Of a stretch of DNA of 20,000 nucleotides, positions 1 through 19,902 are shown in pieces. The stretch's first letter is position 1; each line of letters begins with the position of its first letter. The position numbers were made by a program, and so were the translations under genes. The stretch is from IMG/VR virus record IMGVR_UViG_3300037499_000085. One strand, given 5' to 3'. The stretch comes from an uncultured virus (IMG/VR IMGVR_UViG_3300037499_000085) (Duplodnaviria; Heunggongvirae; Uroviricota; Caudoviricetes). The notes under the pieces were generated by a model. It made no database searches, was not told the DNA's origin, and saw only the letters and a list, made by a program, of their open reading frames with translations.

Positions 1-1025
1 ATGGCGTCAGCAGCGGTCAGGCTGACCACACTGCCACCGACGGCCGCGACACCCGTGACGACGCCCTCGGGGTTCGGCGGAGTGCCGTTGCCGATGATGA
101 ACGCCGTGGCCTCTTCGGTGTCCTTGGCTTCGGCGAACATGGTCGCCAGCTCGCCGCGCATCTGCGACCAGTCCTGGTCGATCTCGAAGCTGAACGGGAC
201 GAAGCCCTGCACGCGAGACGGCGTGACGGTCGGCTGTGCAATCGTCGGCGCGTTGTCTCCGGCTTCAGCCGCTTCCGCCGCACGGGACACGGTGATCCCG
301 GCCGACGTGACGCCCTGCCACTGCTTGCCCACGATCTGGACCACGCGGGCGATCTGCCGGATCGGGTTGACCACTCCGGCGTCCGTGAGGATCACGGAGG
401 GGTCCAGGTTGAACGGGACCGCGAAACCGCCGGTCGTGGTCGCGCCGACGGCCAGCGCCGCACGCTCTTCGTTCGAGAGACCGTTCAGGGATCCCGCGAG
501 GGCCGCCTTGCCGAACGCCCGGTCGTACACCGCAGAGCCGGTCTGGAGGATGCCGCGCGCGAGGGTGCCGTCCTTGTCGTCCACCCGGCGAAGCAGCCGT
601 TCGATGTGGCCGCGCGTGGCGTCCTCGTCGTTGACCGAGTCGTAGTGGTTCATCTCGACGGCGCGGAGAGCGTTGTCCCGCATGGCGCGGGTCAGGTCGT
701 CCACGTTGCGCGCATCGCGGCGCAGGGCCGTGATGTCGTAGATGTTCTCTGCGGTGCGCTTCTTGATCACGTTGGGCGGGGAGAACGGCGTGCCGTCCTC
801 GGTTGAGCTGGAACCCGCCAGGGCCGCGAGACGCTGGGCACGCGCGTTGGCCGCCGCGATGCTCGCGGTGTGCTCCTCGTACTCCGCGCTGATCGAGTCC
901 CACTCGGTCTGCCGCTCCTCAGGGAGGACCGCGCCGTTGTACTCCGCGTCGAGTTCCTGGAGCCGGGTCCGGATCTCTGCCTGGCGCTGCTCGCGCTCAG
1001 ACACCGTCATGGTCAGCTCGTCCAT
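1..1025 (-). CDS. Major capsid protein (HK97 fold with N-terminal coiled-coil delta domain), internal in-frame start, partial
   Basis: AAGGAG 7 nt upstream of ATG 1025, in frame with 2399 (1374 nt = 458 codons). Begins MDELTMTVSEREQRQAEIRTRLQELDAEY (coiled coil), followed by HK97 capsid motifs. Confidence 0.8.
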   Translation of the reverse strand, partial: MDELTMTVSEREQRQAEIRTRLQELDAEYNGAVLPEERQTEWDSISAEYEEHTASIAAANARAQRLAALAGSSSTEDGTPFSPPNVIKKRTAENIYDITALRRDARNVDDLTRAMRDNALRAVEMNHYDSVNDEDATRGHIERLLRRVDDKDGTLARGILQTGSAVYDRAFGKAALAGSLNGLSNEERAALAVGATTTGGFAVPFNLDPSVILTDAGVVNPIRQIARVVQIVGKQWQGVTSAGITVSRAAEAAEAGDNAPTIAQPTVTPSRVQGFVPFSFEIDQDWSQMRGELATMFAEAKDTEEATAFIIGNGTPPNPEGVVTGVAAVGGSVVSLTAADA

Positions 1026-2399
1026 ACGAGCACTCCTTTGAACTGCCTCTGCCTTCGGGGGAGTTGGAGTGCTTACGCGGCTCCGAGGTACTGCGGGAGC
1101 GGCGGCTGCGGCCTTGGCCGGAGTGCCCTGCGCCGGAACGACCGGCGGGGTGGTCGTGCTCTTCTTCTCGTCGTCCGGGATAGAGATCCCGAACTTCTTC
1201 GCAGCGGCCTTGATCTTGTCCTTGATGGGACCAAGGTGCTCCGGGGAGTACTTGCCCGCGTTGTCCGGCTGGTTGATGTAGGACCATGCTGCCTGAACAT
1301 GATCCTTCGAGTCCAGCGGGTAGCGCTTCTTCTTGTCTTTCTGGTATCCGGGGTCAGCATACGGCACGTCACCGTAGGGCTTCGCCGGATCGGCCGCGCG
1401 AACCCATTCCACAGCCTCATCCGGGGTGTACCCGGACCCGAGCAGGGCGGTCAGGTAATCGGTGTGGGACCGGACGTCGTCCAGGGGGGTCTCCACCGGG
1501 GGCATGACCTCTGTTACCTGGTCCTCGGTGTACCCGGCGTCCACCAGGGCTATGACCACCTGGGACCGGGCGGTAAGAAGCGCGCACGCTCCGACACATC
1601 CGCAACCTTCACAGTGGCAGTACACCCCACGGGCGCACTCACAGTTTTCGGACCGGCCGGGCTCGTTGTCCACCTTGGCCAGCGCCCGCGCTGCTGCCAC
1701 CGTTTCGCGCGTCTCTCGTGCCGACCTGAGCGCCGTCTCGAACTCTTCCGGCCGCCGCCGCTTGAGCGCCTCGTAGTACTCATCGGTGGTCGACCGCAGA
1801 CCGGCCGACGACTCCGCGTTAGCGGGGAACATCGTCGGTCCGAACTCCATGACCTTGACTTCCTTCACGGTCCGCTCGGGGATCCCGTTCGGGTTGGAGC
1901 TGGAGCGCTCGGGCTCTTCGATCCACTCGTCCTGTAGGACCCGGAAGCGGAACGACGATCCGTACGCACCAGCTTCCAGCGCGGGCCGGAGGTCGCGCAC
2001 GTAGGACGTGTCAAGCAGCGGCACCTCGTACCGAGCGCCGTGGCCGTCCTCTTCCAGGACCCGGGGCACACCGAGGGGCTTGTCAGCCACTTGCGGGTCA
2101 TGGCCGTGTTCGAGGAGAACCTTGATCTTCTCGCCCGCGTTCTTCCGGGCCGCGTCGTCGTTGAAGGTCTTCTTGAACGCGCCGGACGCGATGCGCTCAA
2201 GGAACCGGCCCTCGAACTGCGAGTTGATCTCGTACCAATTGCCGAACGCCGAGAAGTGGCCTTCCATCACGTGGACGTCCGGGCCACCGTCCTTCTCCGC
2301 GCGTTCCAGGCGTACCTCGCCGAGATCCGACTGTGTACGGCATACCGGAACCGGAAGCCTGACAGGAGGACCCTCGATCGTCTCGATTTGATCGGTCAT
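1..2399 (-). CDS. Prohead protease (HK97-type) + Cys-rich segment + DUF6582-like domain + major capsid protein, one continuous ORF, 3' end outside the window
   Basis: Manual translation from ATG 2399 (ATGA overlap with the upstream ORF) has no stop to the window edge, which explains its absence from the ORF track. Protease motifs: MEGHFSAFGNWYEI, FLERIASGAFKKT, VLLEHGHD, YGSSFRFRV, EFGPTMFPA. Then KPYGDVPYADPGYQKDKKKRYPLD...AAWSYIN, then capsid motifs GGFAVPFNLDPSVIL, NPIRQIARV, QGFVPFSFEI. Confidence 0.9.
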   Translation of the reverse strand, partial: MTDQIETIEGPPVRLPVPVCRTQSDLGEVRLERAEKDGGPDVHVMEGHFSAFGNWYEINSQFEGRFLERIASGAFKKTFNDDAARKNAGEKIKVLLEHGHDPQVADKPLGVPRVLEEDGHGARYEVPLLDTSYVRDLRPALEAGAYGSSFRFRVLQDEWIEEPERSSSNPNGIPERTVKEVKVMEFGPTMFPANAESSAGLRSTTDEYYEALKRRRPEEFETALRSARETRETVAAARALAKVDNEPGRSENCECARGVYCHCEGCGCVGACALLTARSQVVIALVDAGYTEDQVTEVMPPVETPLDDVRSHTDYLTALLGSGYTPDEAVEWVRAADPAKPYGDVPYADPGYQKDKKKRYPLDSKDHVQAAWSYINQPDNAGKYSPEHLGPIKDKIKAAAKKFGISIPDDEKKSTTTPPVVPAQGTPAKAAAAAPAVPRSRVSTPTPPKAEAVQRSARMDELTMTVSEREQRQAEIRTRLQELDAEYNGAVLPEERQTEWDSISAEYEEHTASIAAANARAQRLAALAGSSSTEDGTPFSPPNVIKKRTAENIYDITALRRDARNVDDLTRAMRDNALRAVEMNHYDSVNDEDATRGHIERLLRRVDDKDGTLARGILQTGSAVYDRAFGKAALAGSLNGLSNEERAALAVGATTTGGFAVPFNLDPSVILTDAGVVNPIRQIARVVQIVGKQWQGVTSAGITVSRAAEAAEAGDNAPTIAQPTVTPSRVQGFVPFSFEIDQDWSQMRGELATMFAEAKDTEEATAFIIGNGTPPNPEGVVTGVAAVGGSVVSLTAADA

Positions 2400-2539
2400 G
2401 CTGCGCCCCCCTTCGGGGCCTGCTCGGACTGCGGGTCCTTGGATGACGGTAGCTGATCGGCTTTCTTCTCCGATCCCGGGGGTTTGATGTTCTTTCTATG
2501 GATCTTGATGTTGTCGGCCGCCCAGACGAATCGGTCCAT
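2396..2539 (-). CDS. 47-aa hypothetical protein (MDRFVWAADNIKIHRKNIKPPGSEKKADQLPSSKDPQSEQAPKGGAA)
   Basis: GGAG just upstream of ATG 2539. Fills the portal-protease gap. Its TGA overlaps the protease ATG (ATGA). Not in the ORF track, probably because of its size. Confidence 0.7.
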   Translation of the reverse strand: MDRFVWAADNIKIHRKNIKPPGSEKKADQLPSSKDPQSEQAPKGGAA

Positions 2540-2562
2540 GTCTCCGTGATCTTTCTTACTGG

Positions 2563-4578
2563 TCACAGGACCACCTCTACGTCGTATCCGTCATCGGTGA
2601 CGGCCGTCACCCGGTACGTCGTTCCGGGTGGCAGGATCCATTCGTCTTCGTTCCCGTGAGAATAGACCGAATAGACTTCCAGCACTTGAGTGCCCTTCGG
2701 CATCGTGATGTTCAGGGTGTCCCCCTTGGACCCTTCCCCGCGCATCATCGGAGCCATGGCGAAGAGATCCGCTATCGCTTCGTCCGTGGTGCTACTGGTG
2801 AAACCGCGATCATCGAACTCGTCTCCGACGTTCATGTCCGGGAGCTTGTTGCCACCCCGGAGAACGGTCGTATCTTCGGCCAGAGGTTTTTGGATATTGA
2901 TCAAGTCATTCAGTGCGCGGGCCGACTCCCTCTCCCCCTCCTCCGTCATGCCCTTCACCGGCCTGCCCTTCCGCAGGTAGGCGTTCACGGTCGGGGCATC
3001 TATGTAGTCCTCCAGCGCCTGAAGCTGCTCTTCTTCGGTGTAGTCGGCAGAGCCGAGAGAACCGCCACGAGGCGGACCCAGTTGACGCAGACCACCACGG
3101 CCCCGGTTCCCGGGGTGGAGTTTGTGGTACCCGGGGTCCCCCAGACTGCCGTGCCGTTCACTGGCCCTGCCCGGTGCTTTTGGGGTGTCGTCATCACCCG
3201 GCGGGAGTTCCTTCGGCTCTTCTCCGGGCGGAAGCTCCGGAGCACTGCCGTCAGGAGGTGTCTCCCCGTCGGGTGTCTCACCCGGAGCGAGCAACTGCAC
3301 CGAAACCAGGCCGGTGTGCTGGAGCAGCGTGACGTCACCGGCCGCCACAGCCTTCACAGACGATTCCGGAGTGAAACCACCCTGCACGAACTTGATCACG
3401 GATGCCGAGTTTTCCGCCATGATTTTGGCAGCTTCTAGCTGATCAGTGCGCAGGAACGCGATGTCCCGGTCGTCGTACCACAGACGTACGGACCGGCTCG
3501 ACGTAGGCATAGGAGTGATCGACTGGTAGGCAGCGGATACCGACTGCCACAAGGACCGGAGAGTCTTGTCCGCGAAAGATTCTTTCGCGCTCTTGTAGTT
3601 GCCCGAGTTGAGGCTCGACCCCTGCATGCCCTCGGAGAACCCGACCACCACGGACGGCACTCCGGCGGCGGCAGCGATACGTGTTTCTCCGCTTCCCTGC
3701 ACCGACTTGAAGTCCATCTGAATCATGTTCGCGCCGACGATACTGACGTCCGTGCCGCCACCGAGGTACATCGTTTTGTAGGCGTTTTCGATGCCCCCGT
3801 TGGACGCCTCGAAGGCTTCCATCAGCTCTAGGAACTGGGCTTTGGTAACGGTGTCCTTGACGGACACTGCCAGCTTGGGGGTGGCCGCGTTCGATACAAA
3901 CTTGGCCTTGTGATCGGTGTACGCCTTGTCAGCCTGAATCTCCCGGAGCACCGGCGTCAGCCACGACATGCCCCGGTACTGCGCTTCCGGGTCCGGGATG
4001 GGAGACCAGTGCGCCATTTCCTCGGGGAAGTAGATCTTCGGGGCACCGTTGTTGATGCCGCCGGGGTAATACGCGTACCCGACCACATCGGATTCAACGG
4101 CCTGGTCCGGCGGGGCGCTCAGCAAGATCTGTACCCAGTCCGGCCGGAGCCGTCGGAGCCGGTCCTTCTCACGCACCACGTAGTGATTCCCGGAGAGATC
4201 TGCGTCCTGAATCGCACGGGACAGAAGTTCACCGGTCGTGCCGTTCGGCCATGGGTTCTCCAGCAATGCCAGCGACGCCGATCCGAAAAGATCGCCCGGC
4301 CGTCCGTTCGTGATCCGCTGGAACTGGAACCGAGCCTGTGAGAACACCGATCGCCGTGCCTCCATACACGCGAACACGATGCCGTTGCTCTTGTACAGGC
4401 CGTGGATGTAGCCGAGAAAAGAATTCTCGATCGATTCGGTATCGTTCGAAGTGGTAGTGCCGGACAGCAGATAGCCGAGACCCTGGTAGGTCATTTGCTC
4501 GTACCATTCGGCCATGGAGATGACCGGGTCCCCGCGCTCTTCCGGCCGTCCGAGAAGGGACCGCCATAGCTTAGCCAT
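2563..4578 (-). CDS. HK97-family portal protein with C-terminal VIP2-like (R-S-E) ADP-ribosyltransferase domain
   Basis: Portal motifs VFACMEARRSVFS, LLENPWPNGT, GNHYV, RLRPDWV, YRGMSWL, ETRIAAAAGVPSVVVG, and position after TerL. A Pro/Glu/Gly linker leads to ALEDY...VNAYLR...VLRG...GFTSSTTD...LNITMPKG...NEDEWILPPGTTYRV. Confidence 0.9.
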   Translation of the reverse strand: MAKLWRSLLGRPEERGDPVISMAEWYEQMTYQGLGYLLSGTTTSNDTESIENSFLGYIHGLYKSNGIVFACMEARRSVFSQARFQFQRITNGRPGDLFGSASLALLENPWPNGTTGELLSRAIQDADLSGNHYVVREKDRLRRLRPDWVQILLSAPPDQAVESDVVGYAYYPGGINNGAPKIYFPEEMAHWSPIPDPEAQYRGMSWLTPVLREIQADKAYTDHKAKFVSNAATPKLAVSVKDTVTKAQFLELMEAFEASNGGIENAYKTMYLGGGTDVSIVGANMIQMDFKSVQGSGETRIAAAAGVPSVVVGFSEGMQGSSLNSGNYKSAKESFADKTLRSLWQSVSAAYQSITPMPTSSRSVRLWYDDRDIAFLRTDQLEAAKIMAENSASVIKFVQGGFTPESSVKAVAAGDVTLLQHTGLVSVQLLAPGETPDGETPPDGSAPELPPGEEPKELPPGDDDTPKAPGRASERHGSLGDPGYHKLHPGNRGRGGLRQLGPPRGGSLGSADYTEEEQLQALEDYIDAPTVNAYLRKGRPVKGMTEEGERESARALNDLINIQKPLAEDTTVLRGGNKLPDMNVGDEFDDRGFTSSTTDEAIADLFAMAPMMRGEGSKGDTLNITMPKGTQVLEVYSVYSHGNEDEWILPPGTTYRVTAVTDDGYDVEVVL

Positions 4579-4738
4579 CAGGCTTGTCCTCCTCGCGTTC
4601 GTCCACCAGTAGCGGCACGCCGATCAGGACCGAGAGACCAGTACCGAAGAGAGCCCACGGTCCGAAGATCCAGGTGAGTCCCGTCGCGATCATAGCAACC
4701 GAAATCAGAACGAAGATCAGGGCTTCACGATGAGTCAC
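4571..4738 (-). CDS. Small two-helix membrane protein (55 aa)
   Basis: GTG 4738 overlaps the TerL stop (GTGA). Hydrophobic segments ALIFVLISVAMIATGLTWIF and WALFGTGLSVLIGVPLLV. Similar genes commonly lie between terL and portal in actinophages. Confidence 0.7.
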   Translation of the reverse strand: MTHREALIFVLISVAMIATGLTWIFGPWALFGTGLSVLIGVPLLVDEREEDKPDG

Positions 4739-6375
4739 CTCGTCACCACCCACGGGGCAGTCGGCTCATGGTCACTCGATTTGGTCTGGAAGCCCCATAC
4801 CGCGAGTGTGGCTGCGACAAGCGGAGAAATGTCGGTCGTGGTGTTCTTGCGGTCCCATGCCCACAGTTCTGCGAGATCGCGCTTCGCCGCGCCGGAAACC
4901 GCAAGCGTCATGGGCAACTGATCCCGGTGCGCGAGTAGCTGGGGCTGACCATTCGTAGTCATGATCGCGGAACCGAACCACCCGCACGCTTGCGCGTAAT
5001 CCCGCGCCGTAGGGCATGTGACTTCCATGCCGCGCCGCTTCATCACACTGCCGTCCTTCTCAAGATCCTTGATCAGTGAACCCGCCTGACTGGCCCTGTC
5101 GATCACGATGGCACACGGATTCCAGCGTTCGATCAGCTCCTCCACACGGGCCACCACCCATCGGTCGCCCGGCCGGTGGTCCAGCTCGTCAGCGCCGGTG
5201 ATCTCGATATGCGCGAGGCCGTCCTGGTTGATACCGGCCACCACGATGCATGCATACCGCCGGTCCGGCGTCATGTCGATGGCGAAAGCGACCGGCGCGA
5301 CCGGCGACGAGGTGGGATCCGCGCAGGTTTTCCAGGCCGCTTCGCTGATCACAAGCCACGCGTCATCTTCCACCGGCCAGTCACCGAGACCGAGGCGCTC
5401 CCGGTCGAATTCCTCGGGGTCCATCTGCCGCTTCTCGGCCTCGATGTGCTCGAAGGACTGCTGTGCATCGTTCACACCGCCGATCCGGATACCCCATCCC
5501 GGATTGGCTTTGGCGTACGAGCGGATGAGTCGGTTGGTCTTCCGGATGATCTCTTCCTCAGTCATTCCGGGCCGGACCTTGAAACGCTTCTGGTCGTGCT
5601 CCTCGCAATTCTCGGGGCAGAACTGTGAGCACTCCTCCGCCGACCATTCCAGAAACGACACACGAGGTTCGCCGCGCATGCCGCGCCTCCGCAGCCTGCC
5701 GAGCGCGGTCGAGTGCTTCATACCGGCAGATCCCGCGTAGATCACCTGCGGGTTAGGAACAGCGGACAGGGTCGGGAGAATCGCGCCGACCGTGACGCCG
5801 CTGAGGATCATCGCTTCATTGAAGATCAGACAGTCGCACGTCCAGCCACGGCCGCCGCCCTCGGTGCGCGTACGGAAGCGCAACTCGCGCTTGACCCCGT
5901 CCCGGATGATCTCGAAACCTTCCTTGCCGTGGCTCCGGCTGACGCTGCCCTTGTGAGTGACGAGAAACCGGTCGAGATCCGGCGATGCCATGATCAGTTC
6001 TTCCACCCGCTGGAAGTGCCTCAGCGATGTGTCGAACAGGTGCGCCGAGTGGATGATCAGCTCGTCGTCTTCCGCGAGAAACAGGCCGAACAGCTCACGC
6101 GCTTCGAGGACTACGTCCTTGCCGTTCTGACGTCCGGCGATCAGCCCGAACTCCTTGGAAGCCCACCGGCCGTCATCCTGTACGCCAAGCAGCTCATCAA
6201 GCGCGAGGGCTTCCCACGGGTCCATGGTGAGGCCCGCCATTTCGGCAAGTTCGACAGCTTCCCGACCACGCGTACTGATCTTGGGCGGAACACAGTAGAC
6301 CCGGGGCGTCTGGTCCCCCATCTCGGGAAGAACGAGCCTCGGATCCCACGGGCTGATGTGATCAAGAAGAGCCAT
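4735..6375 (-). CDS. terL: Terminase large subunit
   Basis: Walker A region GRQNGKD, IIHSAH, FRTRTEGGGRG, Walker B LIFNEA, coupling motif YAGSA, nuclease AFAIDM and C-terminal DISPLVAAT. Lies directly upstream of the portal. Confidence 0.95.
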   Translation of the reverse strand: MALLDHISPWDPRLVLPEMGDQTPRVYCVPPKISTRGREAVELAEMAGLTMDPWEALALDELLGVQDDGRWASKEFGLIAGRQNGKDVVLEARELFGLFLAEDDELIIHSAHLFDTSLRHFQRVEELIMASPDLDRFLVTHKGSVSRSHGKEGFEIIRDGVKRELRFRTRTEGGGRGWTCDCLIFNEAMILSGVTVGAILPTLSAVPNPQVIYAGSAGMKHSTALGRLRRRGMRGEPRVSFLEWSAEECSQFCPENCEEHDQKRFKVRPGMTEEEIIRKTNRLIRSYAKANPGWGIRIGGVNDAQQSFEHIEAEKRQMDPEEFDRERLGLGDWPVEDDAWLVISEAAWKTCADPTSSPVAPVAFAIDMTPDRRYACIVVAGINQDGLAHIEITGADELDHRPGDRWVVARVEELIERWNPCAIVIDRASQAGSLIKDLEKDGSVMKRRGMEVTCPTARDYAQACGWFGSAIMTTNGQPQLLAHRDQLPMTLAVSGAAKRDLAELWAWDRKNTTTDISPLVAATLAVWGFQTKSSDHEPTAPWVVTR

Positions 6376-6821
6376 TACTGAACGCGCCTGCCCCGCCGAC
6401 GGCCGTTGCCGTCACGACGGGGTGCGCCCATGGATCCGGGCCGCCGAGCCGCCAGCTCGTCATACGCGGAAGCCGTGGCCGGATGCTCCGGCGCCTTCGA
6501 GGCGTCCACCTCTTCGATTCCCTGCGCCTTCATGATCTGCTTAACGAGCGACGAGGCCACCTCGACCGACCGGTTGTCGCCGTTGCTGGCCTTGACCCAT
6601 ACACCGGCCAGCAACCGGGAAAGCCGGGCCATGCTGAGCGATCGACTGGCCGCCGGAGACAGAGCGTCGACCGGATTCTCAGTGAGCGCCTGCTCGATAT
6701 CTCCGATGGCTTCTGCTCGGTCGGCGTAACCGCATTCCGTGGCGATCGACTCCCAGTCGACTCCCGCCAGAGCGAAGCCAAGGGCCCGCTTCCTGCGCCG
6801 CTGAAGCGCTTCAGTCTCCAT
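6375..6821 (-). CDS. terS: Probable terminase small subunit (N-terminal HTH)
   Basis: RRKRALGFALAGVDWESIATECGY HTH-like N-terminus, helical core, C-terminal YDELAARR motif, and TAATG coupling to terL. Confidence 0.7.
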   Translation of the reverse strand: METEALQRRRKRALGFALAGVDWESIATECGYADRAEAIGDIEQALTENPVDALSPAASRSLSMARLSRLLAGVWVKASNGDNRSVEVASSLVKQIMKAQGIEEVDASKAPEHPATASAYDELAARRPGSMGAPRRDGNGRRRGRRVQ

Positions 6822-7710
6822 CGCGCATCACCCCTTTGGTCCGTTCACGGTACGCGATGGCACGCTGGTTCTCGTCTGCCTCGCTGCCACACTTGGTCAT
6901 CGCGGCACGCATGTAGGCGACCAACGAGATCCGCTCTGCATCGCAGGTGTCGCAGAACCGTGTCCGGCGCGCACCGCACGCACAGATGATCGCAGTATTC
7001 CCGTGCCACTGGTGCGCGTCCATGAGGATCAAATCGCCGTCCTGGAGATCGACGCCTACCCGGTACTCCGGAAACACGAACCGGCCGCCGGTGTACGAAC
7101 CGCGCCGGATGACCCCGAGCGTGCTGAATCCCTTGTCAAGGTCGCCTTTGTCGGTGTGCACACCGGTCGGGTAGGTGTTGTTCACGGTGATGGTGGTGAA
7201 CGGCGTACCGGGTACCACCCAATCCTGATGCGTGGCGTTGATCTCTTCCATCTGCGCCTCGTACCGGTCCGGAACGTACTGATGCAGCTTCACGGCGATC
7301 TGTTGGAGCATCGGCTGCAACAGTTCCCACTCCGGCAGGTGCTTGCCGGTCCAGGCGGTGAGTCGGCAGTACGGGAACCTACGGCTCTCGTCCATGACCC
7401 CGAGGATATTGCTGGACACCCTCATGGCCCGGTTCTGCTTACCGACCACGGTCAGTTTCTTGGAGCCGCTGGCCATGGCCCGGTTGTCGGTCAGCTCGCC
7501 CCGGAAGGAGTGCAGTACGGCGTACTGTTCCGCGCTCACATGGTCCTTCAGAACCCCGGGGAGATAGACGCAGAGCAGCTTGCCGTCCGGCATGTAGACC
7601 CGGCTCGGGCCGGTAAGCAGGACGTTGAATGCATCGTCCCCGACCACCCGGCCGATCTTGGTATCCAGCTCTTCTGTGGACACCCGGGACCTGACCCTGA
7701 CACTGATCAT
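6811..7710 (-). CDS. TET/JBP-family 2OG-Fe(II) dioxygenase (5-methylpyrimidine hydroxylase)
   Basis: YCRLTAWT, TPFTTITVNN, HxD (HTDKGD), GGRFVFPEY, distal His (HQWHGNT) and 2OG-binding Arg (ERISLVAY, compare TET RISLVFY). Start placed at ATG 7710 by the ATGA overlap. Confidence 0.9.
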   Translation of the reverse strand: MISVRVRSRVSTEELDTKIGRVVGDDAFNVLLTGPSRVYMPDGKLLCVYLPGVLKDHVSAEQYAVLHSFRGELTDNRAMASGSKKLTVVGKQNRAMRVSSNILGVMDESRRFPYCRLTAWTGKHLPEWELLQPMLQQIAVKLHQYVPDRYEAQMEEINATHQDWVVPGTPFTTITVNNTYPTGVHTDKGDLDKGFSTLGVIRRGSYTGGRFVFPEYRVGVDLQDGDLILMDAHQWHGNTAIICACGARRTRFCDTCDAERISLVAYMRAAMTKCGSEADENQRAIAYRERTKGVMRDGD

Positions 7711-8708
7711 CGGTGCTTCACCTCGACGACCGGAAGTTCCCACTTCCGCCGGACCGGCGCCGTGAACGGTTCACCGAGCAGGGCGTCTTGGATGACTGCC
7801 TCGTCGCCGGTCCGGGGTTCTTCCATGGTGTTCTTGCCGGTGCGGTCCGGCAAGAGGCCGTTCCGGTAGGTGCGATGGGTGCAGCCCTGACACGGTGCGT
7901 AGTCCCGTCTGCCCGCGTACAACCGGCGCCGTGCCGCCTGGAACTCTTCGCCCTGCCACAGACCGGACAGCCGGATCCGCTTTACCGAACCGATCTTGTA
8001 GACACCTCGCCAGTCGTTGCAGCACAGGGCCACGTTGCCGTCCCACCGGACGCTGATCTCCCGGAAGGGAAGCGCGCACCGCTCACCGTTCCTCCGGTCG
8101 TCCAGCTCCCCCGCTGAACCAGCATGGTTGGACAGATGACTGTGGTTGCCGGTGTTCGCCTGACTGATGTCCTGGACGAGTACGAGGCGCCGTTCAGCGC
8201 CACGCGGCCGTCGGTGCGGGTTTCCTGCCGGGCCCCCCTGCGGGTACCGGTGCACCGTGACGCCGGGCAGGACGGTACTCAGGACCGCTTCCTCCGCCCG
8301 GTAGGGCCGGTAGTTGTCGACCGCGATGGTGTTCGCCCCGGCATCGAACAAGTCGGCCACGGCGGAGCGCCACCGGTCCAGCAACGGAATGCCGTTGGTC
8401 GTAACGAGCACCGGCCACGGACCGCGTTCGCGAAACGCAGAGACAAGCCTGGGAAGATCCTCGTTCATGGTGGGTTCGCCGTGCATGGCGAACTCGATGC
8501 GGGGATTCCACCCGGCGTCGGCGATGTCATCGGCGATCATGTCCGCCGTGTCCGGCGTCATGTACTTGTACGGGCCGCTGAGGTTGTCCCGGTCACCACT
8601 CTCGCGGATACCCCGGATGCCGCAGAAACCGCACCTGAGGTTGCAGCCCTCGGTCGCCTCGACCTGGACACTGTTGGGCGGATCTTGGGTGACTTGCGTG
8701 CGGGTCAT
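7707..8708 (-). CDS. Radical SAM enzyme with SPASM/twitch domain
   Basis: CxxxCxxC (CNLRCGFC), HGEPTM, VTTNG, and C-terminal CALPF...DGNVALCC...PCQGC. Start at ATG 8708 by the ATGA overlap, with GGAG upstream. Confidence 0.9.
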   Translation of the reverse strand: MTRTQVTQDPPNSVQVEATEGCNLRCGFCGIRGIRESGDRDNLSGPYKYMTPDTADMIADDIADAGWNPRIEFAMHGEPTMNEDLPRLVSAFRERGPWPVLVTTNGIPLLDRWRSAVADLFDAGANTIAVDNYRPYRAEEAVLSTVLPGVTVHRYPQGGPAGNPHRRPRGAERRLVLVQDISQANTGNHSHLSNHAGSAGELDDRRNGERCALPFREISVRWDGNVALCCNDWRGVYKIGSVKRIRLSGLWQGEEFQAARRRLYAGRRDYAPCQGCTHRTYRNGLLPDRTGKNTMEEPRTGDEAVIQDALLGEPFTAPVRRKWELPVVEVKHR

Positions 8709-9676
8709 ACCCACTCCTTGATCATGCGCTCCGCGATCATCTGTGCGTCGTGATCCCACAGGACGGGCCGGACGTCGTTGCCAGCGAGCAGCGGGCCCTT
8801 CAGCAGCTCGACCAGATCCTCCGCGTTGGCCACCGGGTGCGCATACGGAGCCATCTCGTCGAGCATGCTGTCCCCGGTCAACCACGCCTTGTTGATGACC
8901 AGTTGGGACCCGGCGTCGAGCGCTTCAAGAAAGGTGTACTGCGTCCCGCCGCCGTCCCCCTTGATCACACTGAGGTCCACCGCGTAGCTCGCGAACCGGG
9001 CCACCCGCACACCTGCCCACAAGCTGGACCGGTGCATGGGGCCGGTGTAGTACGTACGCCAGTCGGGGTCGAGCGCGTCGAGCTTGTGATGGGTGTACAG
9101 CCGGTTCTCGGCACCGTGAATGCGGATGCGGTGCTCCGGCGGAAGCGCGAGGTTGGCCATGACCATGAAATCGGTTCGCTTGTCCCAGTCGAGCCGGGCG
9201 AAGGACGCCGCATGGTACCGGCGCCCGGTACGAGGTGGCATGGCGCAACGTACGTACGGGTGCGGCATGTACCGGGCGTGCGGCAGGTGCCGGAGCATGG
9301 TCCGCCGGATGACCCACAGCGGAGCGCCGCCGTGGTCCACGGCGTCCCGCATTCCGCCCTTCAGCTCCGTAGGGTCATGGATGACAAGCGCCGCACCGGC
9401 GTCCCTGAGTTCGGCCGTCAGTTCCGGCCCTGCGGACTTGTCCACCGCAGTGATGATCATCCGGCCGCTACGGGCCAGGACGTCCAGTCCGGCGGCAGAC
9501 ATGTTCCGGTACTGCAACCCCATGCCGAAGTCGCGCTCATGGTTCTCGGTACGGTTGCCCTGCTTGACCAGGCTGACCGTGTGACCGGCTGCTCGCAGCC
9601 CACGGGCCAGATGCGCGGTGTAGCTGACCCACCCGCCCGTCACCGGCTTCGCCAAATAGGCCAGGGTGACGTTCAC
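8705..9676 (-). CDS. Glycosyltransferase, GT-B fold (TET-associated type)
   Basis: N-terminal GGWVSYTAHLARGLRAAGHTV, VIHDPTE, FARLDWDKR and GGGTQYTFLEALDAG resemble GT-B/GT4-type motifs. GTG 9676 overlaps the stop of the ParB-like gene. Confidence 0.75.
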   Translation of the reverse strand: MNVTLAYLAKPVTGGWVSYTAHLARGLRAAGHTVSLVKQGNRTENHERDFGMGLQYRNMSAAGLDVLARSGRMIITAVDKSAGPELTAELRDAGAALVIHDPTELKGGMRDAVDHGGAPLWVIRRTMLRHLPHARYMPHPYVRCAMPPRTGRRYHAASFARLDWDKRTDFMVMANLALPPEHRIRIHGAENRLYTHHKLDALDPDWRTYYTGPMHRSSLWAGVRVARFASYAVDLSVIKGDGGGTQYTFLEALDAGSQLVINKAWLTGDSMLDEMAPYAHPVANAEDLVELLKGPLLAGNDVRPVLWDHDAQMIAERMIKEWV

Positions 9677-10404
9677 TCGGCAGGCTCCTCGACCAGAACC
9701 TTGGTGCTCGGTTCTGCGGCGCATGAGCACTCGGACGCCAGAGCCACCGCAGCCACCCGAGCCGCGCGGAGTACGGTCTCCCCCTGGCTCAACTGCCCCC
9801 AGGATTCCCGGAGTTTGGTGATCAGCTTGCCCAGTTCGTCAGCCTGCTCGACCGGAAGCGCCAGGATGACGTCCCGGACGCCCCGGGATTCCATGGTGCG
9901 GGATTCCGGGTCTCCCTGTTCGCGGATGCGCTCCTCACGCTCCCCGATGTCGTCGTTGTACTCAGCTACCTCCGGCTCCCGGTATTCGGTGATCTCGGCT
10001 TCCTCGTACTTCGCGAGGATGCTGTCGACTTCCGCCTCGTCGTAGCCGATGCCGGTGTAGTCGTCCAGGCCGGAGAGGATCGCGGCGAGCGCCTGCTCGT
10101 CGTCCTCGGCGAGATCGCTGGACCGGTTGTCGACGATGTTGATCCGGCGCGCAGTGTCCTCGTCGCACTCGATGATCTCGCACCGGGCCTGAGCACCGCC
10201 CAGCTCGTCTATGGCGATCATGGTGTGGTTTCCCGCGAGCACCACCTGAGGCCCGTCCTTGATCTCCCGGACGATGAGCGACCGGTACTGGCCGTTCTTC
10301 ACGATGGACTCTTTGATCACGTCCACCCGGCCGCGCCGTGCGTTTCCGGGGAACGGGATGAGCTGGTCGAGCGGCAGCATTTCGGTTCGGAGGTAGCGGG
10401 TCAT
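9673..10404 (-). CDS. ParB/Srx-like N-terminal domain protein
   Basis: LPLDQLIPFPGNARRG...IKESIVKNGQYRSLIV...VLAGNHT...INIVDNRSSD, the phage ParB-like domain often associated with DNA-modification genes. Acidic C-terminal half. Confidence 0.85.
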   Translation of the reverse strand: MTRYLRTEMLPLDQLIPFPGNARRGRVDVIKESIVKNGQYRSLIVREIKDGPQVVLAGNHTMIAIDELGGAQARCEIIECDEDTARRINIVDNRSSDLAEDDEQALAAILSGLDDYTGIGYDEAEVDSILAKYEEAEITEYREPEVAEYNDDIGEREERIREQGDPESRTMESRGVRDVILALPVEQADELGKLITKLRESWGQLSQGETVLRAARVAAVALASECSCAAEPSTKVLVEEPAE

Positions 10405-18869: not shown

Positions 18870-19034
18870 CTAGACAGGTATGCATCGCGGCTCCCGTATC
18901 CACTCGATGGGCGCCTCGTTGAGCAGCTCCCGGACAGTGGCCCGGTCGGCACCCATGTGTTCGGCGATGGCGTTCATGGACAGTCCTTGATCGTTGAGCA
19001 GGACGGCCCTGATGATCTTCACTTGCTCACTCAT
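18870..19034 (-). CDS. Small helix-turn-helix protein (54 aa)
   Basis: ATGA overlap with the HNH stop. QGLSMNAIAEHMGADRATVRELL is a typical HTH. Confidence 0.75.
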   Translation of the reverse strand: MSEQVKIIRAVLLNDQGLSMNAIAEHMGADRATVRELLNEAPIEWIREPRCIPV

Positions 19035-19759
19035 GATCTGCTCCTGTTGCCTTTGATGATGTTGCATCGGAGGTGCGCCAACTGGACGTTGACCCGTGTG
19101 TCAGGGCCACCCTTGGAGATCGGAATGATGTGGTCAATAGTCGGGCCCCGGAGGTTCCGGCCGGACAGCGTCATGTCCACCGGCTCTTCGCACAGACCGC
19201 AGATGAACCCGTCGCGCTCCGCGATCTCCTCCGTGGTGTAGCGCTCGGTGGGGAGGCCAAGCTTCAGCGCCTGTCGGCGCCGGTTCTTGTCACGCCAGAT
19301 TCGGTTTCTCGGTGCCCGGAACTCAGGAGTCAGCCGCCACGCTTCGAGACAAGGCTGACAACGAGGCACGTTGGCCGTGCTGCGCACATCCGTGCCGCAG
19401 CCCACGCATACGCGCGGCACCCTGGGGGTTGTGTCAACAGCCGTAGACCATGCCGCTTGGTAACACGTGCGCGAACAGTACTTTCGATCACTGGTCACCA
19501 TCTTCGTGAACACTCCGCTACAGCCCGCACACTCCGCATCTAGCCGTGGCTTCTTCCGGCACTCATGACACCGACGGCCGCCCTCGGGGACCGGGCCACG
19601 ATCTTCGATGCCCTTCCCACACCCACCGGCGCAAGCGACACGCGCCCGACCCGACTTCCTCGGAGGCATACCTTCTGCGCGCTTTTTGGCGTACCAGGCA
19701 CGAGAGTAAGCAGCTCGTTTCTCCTTCTCCGTCATATCCGATTTGATCTCCTTGTCCAT
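19031..19759 (-). CDS. HNH endonuclease with multiple N-terminal Zn-ribbon motifs
   Basis: C-terminal ERDGFICGLC...TIDHIIPISKGG...NVQLAHLRCNIIKG, with six upstream Cys pairs. Start placed at ATG 19759 (MDKEIK). Confidence 0.9.
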   Translation of the reverse strand: MDKEIKSDMTEKEKRAAYSRAWYAKKRAEGMPPRKSGRARVACAGGCGKGIEDRGPVPEGGRRCHECRKKPRLDAECAGCSGVFTKMVTSDRKYCSRTCYQAAWSTAVDTTPRVPRVCVGCGTDVRSTANVPRCQPCLEAWRLTPEFRAPRNRIWRDKNRRRQALKLGLPTERYTTEEIAERDGFICGLCEEPVDMTLSGRNLRGPTIDHIIPISKGGPDTRVNVQLAHLRCNIIKGNRSRS

Positions 19760-19800
19760 ACGCCAAGTGTACCGTAATGATTTGTAATTGCAGGTGCAAA
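19760..19800 (-). promoter_or_regulatory. Possible leaderless promoter of the HNH gene
   Basis: TACACT (19771-19766) lies 6 nt upstream of ATG 19759 with no SD, the geometry of actinobacterial leaderless genes. The -35 element is unclear. Confidence 0.45.
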
Positions 19801-19902
19801 GACGCAGGTAGATCGAGTTTGCTAGATCTTTTAGATGCAAAGACGATCTTTCGGGGCGCGTTTGCGATCTTGGTCCGAAGATCGATTTGCAGTGCAAAGA
19901 CG
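19795..19902 (+). repeat. Three perfect 10-bp direct repeats TGCAAAGACG
   Basis: Copies at 19795, 19836 and 19893 in an AT-rich, probably non-coding region. Confidence 0.9.

Follow-up and report, generated by a model that had tools for sequence, protein, structure and literature searches.

Enzymes of the ADP-ribosyltransferase (ART) type that are fused to MuF or portal proteins are taken to be packaged in the phage head and injected (PMC9503650, PMC5512222), and PBECR, 2H and InPase domains are mentioned as further fusion partners of portals (PMC5512222). In the Microbacterium phages, MuF-VIP2 fusions are described for Percival (gp4) and cluster EJ, that of Percival being predicted to be a virion component, and portal-MuF fusions are present in clusters EA3, EA5, EA8 and EB (PMC7302621). 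MuF polymorphic toxins have been described (Jamet et al. 2017, PMC5576092; also PMC3482391), and Bxa, a MuF-type ART of a Bacteroides stercoris prophage, is accompanied by two immunity proteins, with small open reading frames (ORFs) following related toxins (PMC11699363). T4 Alt is a head-packaged ART of the R-S-E type that is delivered with the DNA and has host proteins as its targets, which it modifies on arginine (PMC5512222). The subject here is a 671-amino acid ORF, P0001, in which an HK97-type portal protein continues directly into a domain resembling the VIP2 ART. It lies in 20,000 nucleotides of DNA from an uncultured virus of the Caudoviricetes (IMG/VR record IMGVR_UViG_3300037499_000085), and this whole stretch is termed the window.

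The ORF is single and uninterrupted and occupies window positions 2563..4578 on the minus strand. The initial annotation, which was made from the sequence alone, was drawn over 2563-3290, corresponding to residues ~430-671 and the stop codon (the last ~240 codons). It described a portal protein joined without a stop to a VIP2-like ART, with a Pro/Glu-rich linker and a His/Gly segment between the two, an R-S-E triad (VLRG, FTSST, NEDE) and no MuF domain, and each of these features is borne out by the analyses below. The portal body matches Pfam PF04860 (Phage_portal) over residues 68-352 (E 3.2e-31, 109.2 bits against a cut-off of 39.1) and PHROG 12 'portal protein' (E 2.7e-39), with the NCBIfam model TIGR01537 (portal_HK97) reaching 57.3 bits, below its equivalog cut-off of 112. 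A tblastn search of 50,697 deposited phage records gives 69 records matching P0001, headed by the Rhodococcus phages Madraxi, Jflix2, REQ1 and Shagrat, whose annotated portal proteins are 54-55% identical from residue 1 to residues 433-441. The point at which this similarity stops places the end of the portal body at ~430-440 and marks the remainder of the protein as extra. The portal core has predicted local distance difference test (pLDDT) values of 80-95 in the AlphaFold2 (AF2) full-length monomer model. Portal proteins assemble into a dodecameric ring at a single vertex of the capsid, with the C termini facing the capsid interior.

The C-terminal domain is, as judged from homolog profiles and a predicted model, a VIP2/C3-like ART fold with the full R-S-ExE set of catalytic residues. 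The lone sequence is borderline, with P0001 scoring 22.6 bits against Pfam PF03496 (ADPrib_exo_Tox; residues 516-662) where the cut-off is 23.4, and the identity of the domain is settled by the profile of its homologs together with the fold. The C-terminal 192 amino acids taken alone match none of the PHROG families and none of the NCBIfam models, and a single-sequence search of the PDB returns nothing significant, the only entry being XopAI (E 0.58). The same 192 residues give a single tblastn match in the deposited phage records, Orf14 of Gordonia phage GMA2, a hypothetical protein (E 4e-3). Residues 480-671, searched against 1.84 billion representative proteins, give 434 matches at E <= 1e-3, of which 64 are at E <= 1e-10 and 7 at E <= 1e-30. 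PF03496 is present in 9 of 12 close homologs and, at E <= 1e-4, in 62 of the 67 wider ART homologs scanned, these being 67 of the 150 listed ART relatives (66 of those of up to 1300 amino acids, taken by rank, and P0066).

Two alignments were used, A1 with 12 sequences and A2 with the domain and 22 short homologs (23 sequences). The A2 profile matches the PDB entries for Vis (4xzj, E 1.3e-18) and VIP2 (1qs2, E 6.4e-17) as well as ExoT, C3larvin, SpvB, CDTa, iota Ia and C2-I, the family matches spanning E 1.3e-18 to 1e-8. The AF2 model of residues 470-671 has a mean pLDDT of 89.4 and a predicted template modeling score (pTM) of 0.82. Foldseek comparison of this model with the PDB places VIP2 (1qs2) first (E 6.8e-10, query-normalised TM 0.57), with C3bot1, CDTa, iota Ia and ExoS/T each at a probability of 1.00 and 111 matches at E <= 1e-3. 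Residues R574, S595, E644 and E646 are invariant in all 12 sequences of A1; in A2, S595, E644 and E646 are invariant and R574 is nearly so. The profile alignment sets R574, S595 (TSST) and E644/E646 in register with the YRG, STS and ExE motifs of Vis and VIP2. The ExE form of the ART active site is associated with arginine acceptors, and arginine specificity is consistent with the name of the Vis entry (NAD+--arginine ADP-ribosyltransferase) and with matches to PF01129 ('NAD:arginine ADP-ribosyltransferase') in relatives. The domain probably acts as an arginine-type (R-S-ExE) mono-ADP-ribosyltransferase.

The region between the portal body and the ART domain is composed of a linker and a conserved motif. 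Residues 443-474 (32 amino acids) contain 8 Pro, 5 Glu, 4 Asp and 4 Gly, and residues 442-510 have pLDDT values <50 with no secondary structure in the full-length AF2 model, a predicted disorder that fits a tether of about 80-90 residues. Directly C-terminal to the acidic, Pro-rich part, residues 475-496 form the His/Gly segment RHGSLGDPGYHKLHPGNRGRGG, in which H476, G477, G480, D481, P482, Y484, H488, P489, G490 and N491 are invariant in all 12 aligned proteins. The expression HG-x(1-4)-P-[GDS]-[YF]-x(2-5)-HP matches 44 of the 283 stored proteins, comprising the window protein, all 11 of the closest ART relatives (MuF-type), 17 of 149 proteins from the representative search and 15 of 120 portal relatives. 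The motif is always immediately N-terminal to ART-like cargo in these matches, and it is carried by portals, MuF-type proteins and short stand-alone proteins or is placed in the interior of longer proteins. It may be either a common release or loading element or a plain N-terminal extension of the ART clade; the presence of the same pre-ART motif on MuF-type, portal and stand-alone carriers resembles what is expected for a common processing or loading element. The motif was also considered as an Asp-Pro self-cleaving site, and this was dropped as many copies have R-P or E-P instead of D-P. A separate observation concerns the neighbouring gene, where the DUF6582 part (P0003 residues ~337-360) opens with YADPGYQKDKKKRYP. 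The string YADPGYQKD(G/K)KKRYP is conserved there in 12 of 99 related loci, and the tetrapeptide DPGY is common to this opening string and the pre-ART motif. A literature term search for DUF6582 returned no paper.

The portal-ART fusion is genuine. Two IMG/VR contigs from other metagenome assemblies, L021 and L022, are 99.2% and 99.8% identical in DNA to the window, and over the 7193 and 8578 nt aligned they show 55 and 14 differences, none of which falls within the cargo block described below. Both encode the identical 671-amino acid protein. Contigs were also compared from four runs that are not flagged as possible sources of this DNA. One of them, from run X8, spans window positions 2679-3500 with 0 differences and bridges the ART, the linker and the portal body; the runs share habitat and partly year and may not be fully independent. 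An assembly artefact, which the initial annotation had named as something that would undo the fusion, or a sequencing frameshift merging two genes is now extremely improbable. The contigs from runs X6, X7 and X9 end at 3210-3263, near the joint, and such breaks may reflect co-existing variants in the assembly graph; given the unbroken X8 contig across the joint and the agreement of both L021 and L022 with the window, they were rejected as a sign of chimerism. Three IMG/VR assemblies that differ by single-nucleotide polymorphisms (SNPs) give the same protein, and homologous full-length fusions are present in other assemblies from other sources.

The absence of a MuF domain extends to the surroundings of the gene. 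Pfam gives no Phage_Mu_F match at E <= 1 in P0001, P0002 or P0003 and none at E <= 1e-3 in 21 other window ORFs scanned, and a six-frame search of the nearest record, G001 (19,807 bp, estimated 47% complete), is also negative for PF04233, the Phage_Mu_F profile on which this comparison is based and which leaves the MuF3 and MuF4 profiles of Jamet et al. 2017 to one side. The 11 closest ART relatives of like length (P0004-P0014; 637-721 amino acids, 63-69% identical) are non-portal proteins, and two of them have a weak Phage_Mu_F match (E <= 0.01; best E 0.0025). Among the 67 ART relatives scanned, 12 have a solid Phage_Mu_F domain, one has Phage_min_cap2 and one has a portal domain, this being P0066 (1563 amino acids), in which portal, MuF and ART domains occur together. 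These counts agree with the remark in the initial annotation that phage ARTs are more familiar as MuF fusions.

Two features of the ART relatives stand apart from the window protein. The N-terminal ~200 residues of P0004-P0014 contain two conserved H-x-T/H-x-x-A-like strings (LHCTLFFLG and HICAAY), placed before the weakly MuF-like part. By eye the N-terminal region looks like a 2H phosphoesterase; it has no Pfam match at E <= 0.01, and 2H-MuF and 2H-portal fusions are mentioned in PMC5512222. A further set of relatives (P0019, P0021, P0024, P0026 and others) is 3000-4300 amino acids long with 6-10 separate stretches matching the ART domain. Presumably these are polyvalent proteins of giant size in which the ART module is repeated.

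Comparison with the nearest relative shows the ART as a discrete block. The portal P0164 of locus L023 is 97% identical to the window protein and has no cargo. BLASTN aligns L023 1-3342 with window 6538-3197 at 94.6% and L023 3345-4100 with window 2460-1705 at 95.2%, and window 2461-3196 (736 bp) is missing from L023; these breakpoints are those of BLASTN, the large gap being misplaced in a MAFFT global alignment of the two sequences. The 736-bp block encodes residues 462-671, the stop codon and the first 35 codons of a 56-amino acid ORF, so that homology with L023 ends at the G461 codon in the linker and restarts within the 56-amino acid ORF. The left edge of the block has the C-rich, PPG-coding repeat CCGCCGGG, and another such repeat, CCCCCGGG, lies ~15 nt in from the right edge, so that the event could have been either an insertion into the tail or a deletion of the cargo. 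A foreign origin of the block was considered on composition and no clear sign was seen, with 59.9% GC in the block and 61.3% in the portal body.

The 56-amino acid ORF is tightly overlapped on both sides, with its GTG start overlapping the ART stop codon (GTGA) and its own stop codon overlapping the ATG of the next gene, the protease-capsid fusion (ATGA). The final 20 amino acids of the ORF, DQLPSSKDPQSEQAPKGGAA, are those at the C terminus of the cargo-less portal P0164/L023, and by this homology the end of the ORF is the displaced ancestral tail of the portal. The first 35 residues include DRFVWAADNIKIHRKN and resemble the start of a stand-alone cargo gene in locus L024 (DKYTWAADEIVIHKKK), and a similar beginning is found in stand-alone ART homologs, P0017 and P0022 among them. 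The ORF has no PHROG match. The PKGG codons (GAAGGGGGG) are located 6 nt upstream of the protease ATG and look like the ribosome-binding site of the protease gene, which may be why the displaced tail end has been kept.

The tails of related portals vary in the same region. A search with the whole protein gives 4240 relatives at E <= 1e-20 (8000 candidates scored), and tails were counted on the best 120. Tails of 228-363 amino acids, of at least five kinds, are found in 21 of these, tails of 120-137 amino acids in four and shorter tails in 95, with at least 17 of the best 120 carrying ART or ART-like tails. The tail is of the window type in P0165, P0166 and P0168 (phmmer E 1e-39, 8.7e-44 and 1.5e-37). 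A second type of cargo, on six portals, matches A2 in a profile-profile comparison (probability 98.7%, E 1.6e-16) and has K-G-E where the window protein has E-x-E. A third type, of ~350 amino acids and also on six portals, is linked by profile-profile comparison (probability 92.6%, E 4.5e-7) and has no Pfam match. The tails of P0251 and P0254 pass PF03496 at 40.3 and 72.4 bits, and the other four long tails among the best 120 (P0224, P0229, P0245 and P0270) lie outside the ART-like count. None of the 11 full-length fusions among these 120 comes from NCBI or UniRef. Five portals of 822-857 amino acids (P0185, P0193, P0199, P0232 and P0233), all among the 95 with shorter tails, have intein/homing-endonuclease domains (PF05204, PF14528) inside the body.

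Among the 80 best IMG/VR loci the tail is complete in 79. Eight of these tails are >=200 amino acids and four match the ART profile; two of the four belong to the phage of the window itself and the others are L024 and L036. The portal-ART architecture put forward in the initial annotation is thus found again on related portals in both counts. None of the 19 related portals in GTDB species genomes has a tail >=200 amino acids. The arrangement of L024 (4001-7136) is more elaborate: a window-type portal ART is frameshifted near its end and is followed by a 353-amino acid stand-alone gene and then by the protease-capsid gene. This second cargo gene is built of DKYTWAADEIVIHKKK, the His/Gly motif and the third cargo type, in that order. 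A second cargo-like gene follows the portal-ART in L036, and in L059, where the portal has the third cargo type, a small ORF ending KDPQ...APKGG precedes the protease gene. As close relatives with the same portal have no cargo or another ART-like cargo, the cargo appears to act as the variable tip of a polymorphic effector. The 736-bp indel, the displaced portal tail in the 56-amino acid ORF and the variety of cargo on related portals go beyond the initial annotation and are new here.

These features suggest a virion-borne effector that is loaded through the portal, released by a protease and ejected, a reading that is considered probable, if with restrained confidence. The initial annotation had tentatively proposed such a course, with up to 12 packaged copies and host or defence proteins as targets, and the proposal is a reasonable one. 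In a single polypeptide, a predicted unstructured tether of ~80-90 residues connects a complete HK97-type portal subunit with a VIP2/C3-like R-S-ExE ART. Because the portal is a dodecamer with its C termini directed inward, each procapsid would be built with up to 12 internal ART domains, and neither a MuF adaptor nor a targeting signal of its own would be required. The head maturation protease, a product of the neighbouring gene, would cut in or near the HGxxGDPGYxxxHPG region and free the ART, which would exit together with the DNA and, at the onset of infection, modify host proteins by ADP-ribosylation of arginines, as T4 Alt does. The ART would in this way be an exchangeable cargo block on the portal. 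Several points weigh against this reading. The extended tether is estimated at ~30 nm, well below the length of a siphovirus tail, and since a domain tethered in this way cannot reach the host, delivery requires cleavage, a step that is purely inferred. The His/Gly region has pLDDT values of 55-66 in the AF2 domain model, and as the motif always stands directly before ART-like cargo it could be a mere N-terminal element of this ART clade instead of a release site. Packaging might be impeded by 12 folded domains placed where the portal channel opens into the capsid. The frameshift in L024 indicates that the cargo is dispensable, at least at times, and the Pfam score of the lone sequence is below the cut-off. 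None of the 50,697 deposited phage records covers >=80% of P0001, P0254, P0174 or P0172, and with no deposited record of such cargo on this portal clade there is no cultured example at hand.

One alternative is an ART that stays covalently on the portal, is never injected and has its role at the portal vertex or within the cell that produces the virions. Its targets might for example be host proteins late in infection, proteins of the phage head or of packaging, or defence proteins by which portal or terminase is sensed. The fusion is in frame and conserved and the cleavage site is only putative, a long unstructured tether would let the domain contact partners near the vertex, and PMC9503650 raises the idea of head-module ARTs that counter immunity aimed at portal or terminase. 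The same ART clade is nevertheless found on MuF-type carriers and in stand-alone genes of the head module, which suits cargo better, and a prohead protease gene is adjacent; a permanently attached enzyme is accordingly seen as rather doubtful. Less likely again is a prophage-borne polymorphic antibacterial toxin of the kind represented by the MuF toxins and Bxa, in which the small ORF would be the immunity protein. The cargo does differ between near-identical carriers and L024 contains a cassette array, variable cargo and arrays being a hallmark of polymorphic toxins (PMC5576092, PMC3482391). In Bacteroidales, a small ORF with a proposed immunity role comes after every MuF toxin (PMC11699363), and here the 56-amino acid ORF comes directly after the ART, its start codon overlapping the ART stop codon. 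This ORF is, however, homologous to portal tails and to the N termini of cargo genes and not to any immunity family, and it lacks a PHROG match. The 24 window ORFs scanned contain no ADP-ribosylhydrolase or macro domain, the window gives no indication of lysogeny such as an integrase, and all 19 relatives from GTDB genomes are without a long tail.

The possibility that the ART is dead or decaying, a passenger of recombination that is at most bulk within the head, would account for its absence from a 95%-identical relative, for the frameshift in L024, for the substandard Pfam score and for the K-G-E sequence that replaces E-x-E in the second cargo type on sister portals. It is judged distinctly improbable: the four catalytic residues are all intact and do not vary in relatives with 30-70% identity, the AF2 model is confident, and the three assemblies have zero amino acid changes in spite of SNPs elsewhere. 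The portal-loaded and released effector is retained as the preferred reading. A more far-reaching version of it, advanced here as a tentative and rather unlikely proposal, makes the inner end of the portal an exchangeable effector dock. Units composed of an R-h-x-W peptide, an HGxxGxPGYxxxHP motif and an ART-fold enzyme would recombine through Pro-rich linkers and shuttle among MuF-type carriers, the tails of portals and genes that stand alone between portal and protease. The His/Gly motif would then be the protease site and the R-h-x-W peptide the capsid-targeting signal of unfused copies, giving a common loading-and-release code analogous but unrelated to the T4 capsid-targeting sequence.

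Table 1. Positions of the portal-ART gene, its parts and its neighbours in the window
Feature	Window position	Strand	Evidence
Portal body, HK97-type Phage_portal, residues 1-430	3289..4578	-	Pfam, PHROG, tblastn, AF2
Pro/Glu/Asp/Gly-rich linker, residues 431-474	3157..3288	-	Composition, AF2 disorder
Conserved pre-ART motif region (RHGSLGDPGYHKLHPGNRGRGG...GGSLGS), residues 475-510	3049..3156	-	Alignment, regular expression
Predicted VIP2/C3-like ART domain, residues 511-671	2566..3048; stop 2563-2565	-	Pfam, profile, fold
R574, triad Arg in VLRGG	2857..2859	-	Alignments, Vis/VIP2 register
S595, Ser of S-T-S-like motif, in GFTSST	2794..2796	-	Alignments, Vis/VIP2 register
E644-D645-E646, ExE catalytic motif in GNEDEWILPPG	2641..2649	-	Alignments, Vis/VIP2 register
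736-bp cargo block, missing from L023	2461..3196	-	BLASTN
56-amino acid ORF ending in the putative displaced portal tail	2396..2566	-	ORF overlap, homology to P0164/L023
Prohead protease (S78) + DUF6582 + major capsid protein fusion, downstream	3..2399	-	Pfam, PHROG
Terminase large subunit, upstream	4735..6375	-	PHROG 9 E 1.4e-64; weak Pfam Terminase_6C

The genes around the fusion (Table 1) form a head module in the order terminase, portal-ART and protease-capsid, all on the minus strand, with the portal in the position expected for the family. The protease-capsid ORF matches Peptidase_S78 (E 4.7e-17), DUF6582 (E 3e-19) and Phage_capsid (E 9.8e-12) in Pfam and also PHROG 10 and PHROG 80. Protease, DUF6582 and capsid are contained in one ORF of >799 amino acids that extends past the window edge in G001, and the same fusion recurs in related loci, L023 and L024 among them; the literature mentions protease-capsid fusions in Microbacterium phages (PMC7302621). 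The window has a G+C content of 63.8%, relatives of the portal occur in Streptomyces, Nonomuraea, Nocardioides and other Actinomycetota, and the source DNA was found in sediment metagenomes. The best explanation of the 671-amino acid ORF is a genuine late gene of an uncultured sediment phage of Actinomycetota. Immediately upstream of the terminase genes are a Tet/JBP-type 2-oxoglutarate (2OG)-Fe(II) dioxygenase (PF12851, E 1.3e-19; window 6811-7743, minus strand) and a radical S-adenosylmethionine (SAM)/SPASM protein (7707-8885, minus strand), a pair that may form a DNA-base modification module. A ParB-like protein (PHROG 723, E 2.3e-42) is encoded at 9673-10404 and an HNH endonuclease (PF01844, E 3.4e-09) at 19031-19897, both on the minus strand.

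If the ART is packaged and released, the fusion would be a very simple route to loading a fixed number of effector molecules, in which a linker on the portal suffices, and it could be used for studying or engineering protein delivery by siphovirus-type capsids. In actinobacterial phages, the picture of the head-borne ART now takes in the portal itself besides the MuF carriers. The value added by this locus lies in the natural pair of cargo-bearing and cargo-less portals, in the displaced tail and in the common pre-ART motif. The pair, with ~95% DNA identity, is a ready comparison for the role of the enzyme in the phage, and the motif is a concrete candidate site for proteolytic release. The initial annotation had treated the fusion as unusual, and on this point it is corrected by the literature, as fusions of ARTs and other effectors to head proteins including portals are already in print; the conceptual gain is for this reason modest. 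In a literature search that had most subscription journals outside its reach, neither the cargo indel nor the His/Gly motif was found described, and no account was found of an HK97-type actinophage portal with a polymorphic cargo site.

The domain itself shares with VIP2, C3, Vis, iota Ia and CDTa (PF03496) the fold and the R, S-T-S-like and ExE residues. It differs from these toxins in its low identity (13-21% in Foldseek), in having no secretion or translocation partner, in the additional His/Gly motif and in its location in a phage head module. The comparison with T4 Alt is one of description and not of sequence: both are of the R-S-E type, and loading would here be achieved through the covalent fusion to the portal. 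T4 Alt is a separate protein with an N-terminal capsid-targeting sequence that serves for loading and is removed by the prohead protease.

The MuF-ART fusions and MuF toxins are similar in having a VIP2/C3-type ART at the C terminus of a head-internal protein, in their position in the packaging and head module and in cargo that varies among carriers. The carrier at this locus is instead the portal, with no MuF domain in the protein or in the 19.8-kb G001, and the lack of this domain places the portal-ART outside the MuF toxins as they are defined. The expected copy number is also different, at 12 for the portal compared with the 1-2 copies of SPP1 gp7 quoted in PMC5576092, and no recognisable immunity gene is present, the ART being followed only by the 56-amino acid ORF without a family match. 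By analogy, the portal-ART fits a protein that works like the MuF toxins and belongs to the broader named class of portal-effector fusions. The portal-effector fusions and polyvalent proteins of Iyer et al. (2017, PMC5512222; 2022, PMC9503650) likewise combine an effector with a portal domain in the head module and are predicted to be packaged and injected. The statements in the sections of these papers that bear on such fusions are general and stress myoviruses, and the word 'portal' does not occur in the supplement text of PMC9503650, whereas the protein described here is a minimal two-domain form on an HK97-type actinophage portal. In the portal-MuF fusions of Microbacterium phages (PMC7302621) the portal gene is likewise extended at its 3' end by a head-internal module, which there is MuF and here is the enzyme itself. 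The portal-ART is a rarer version of the known phage habit of hitching such enzymes to head proteins.

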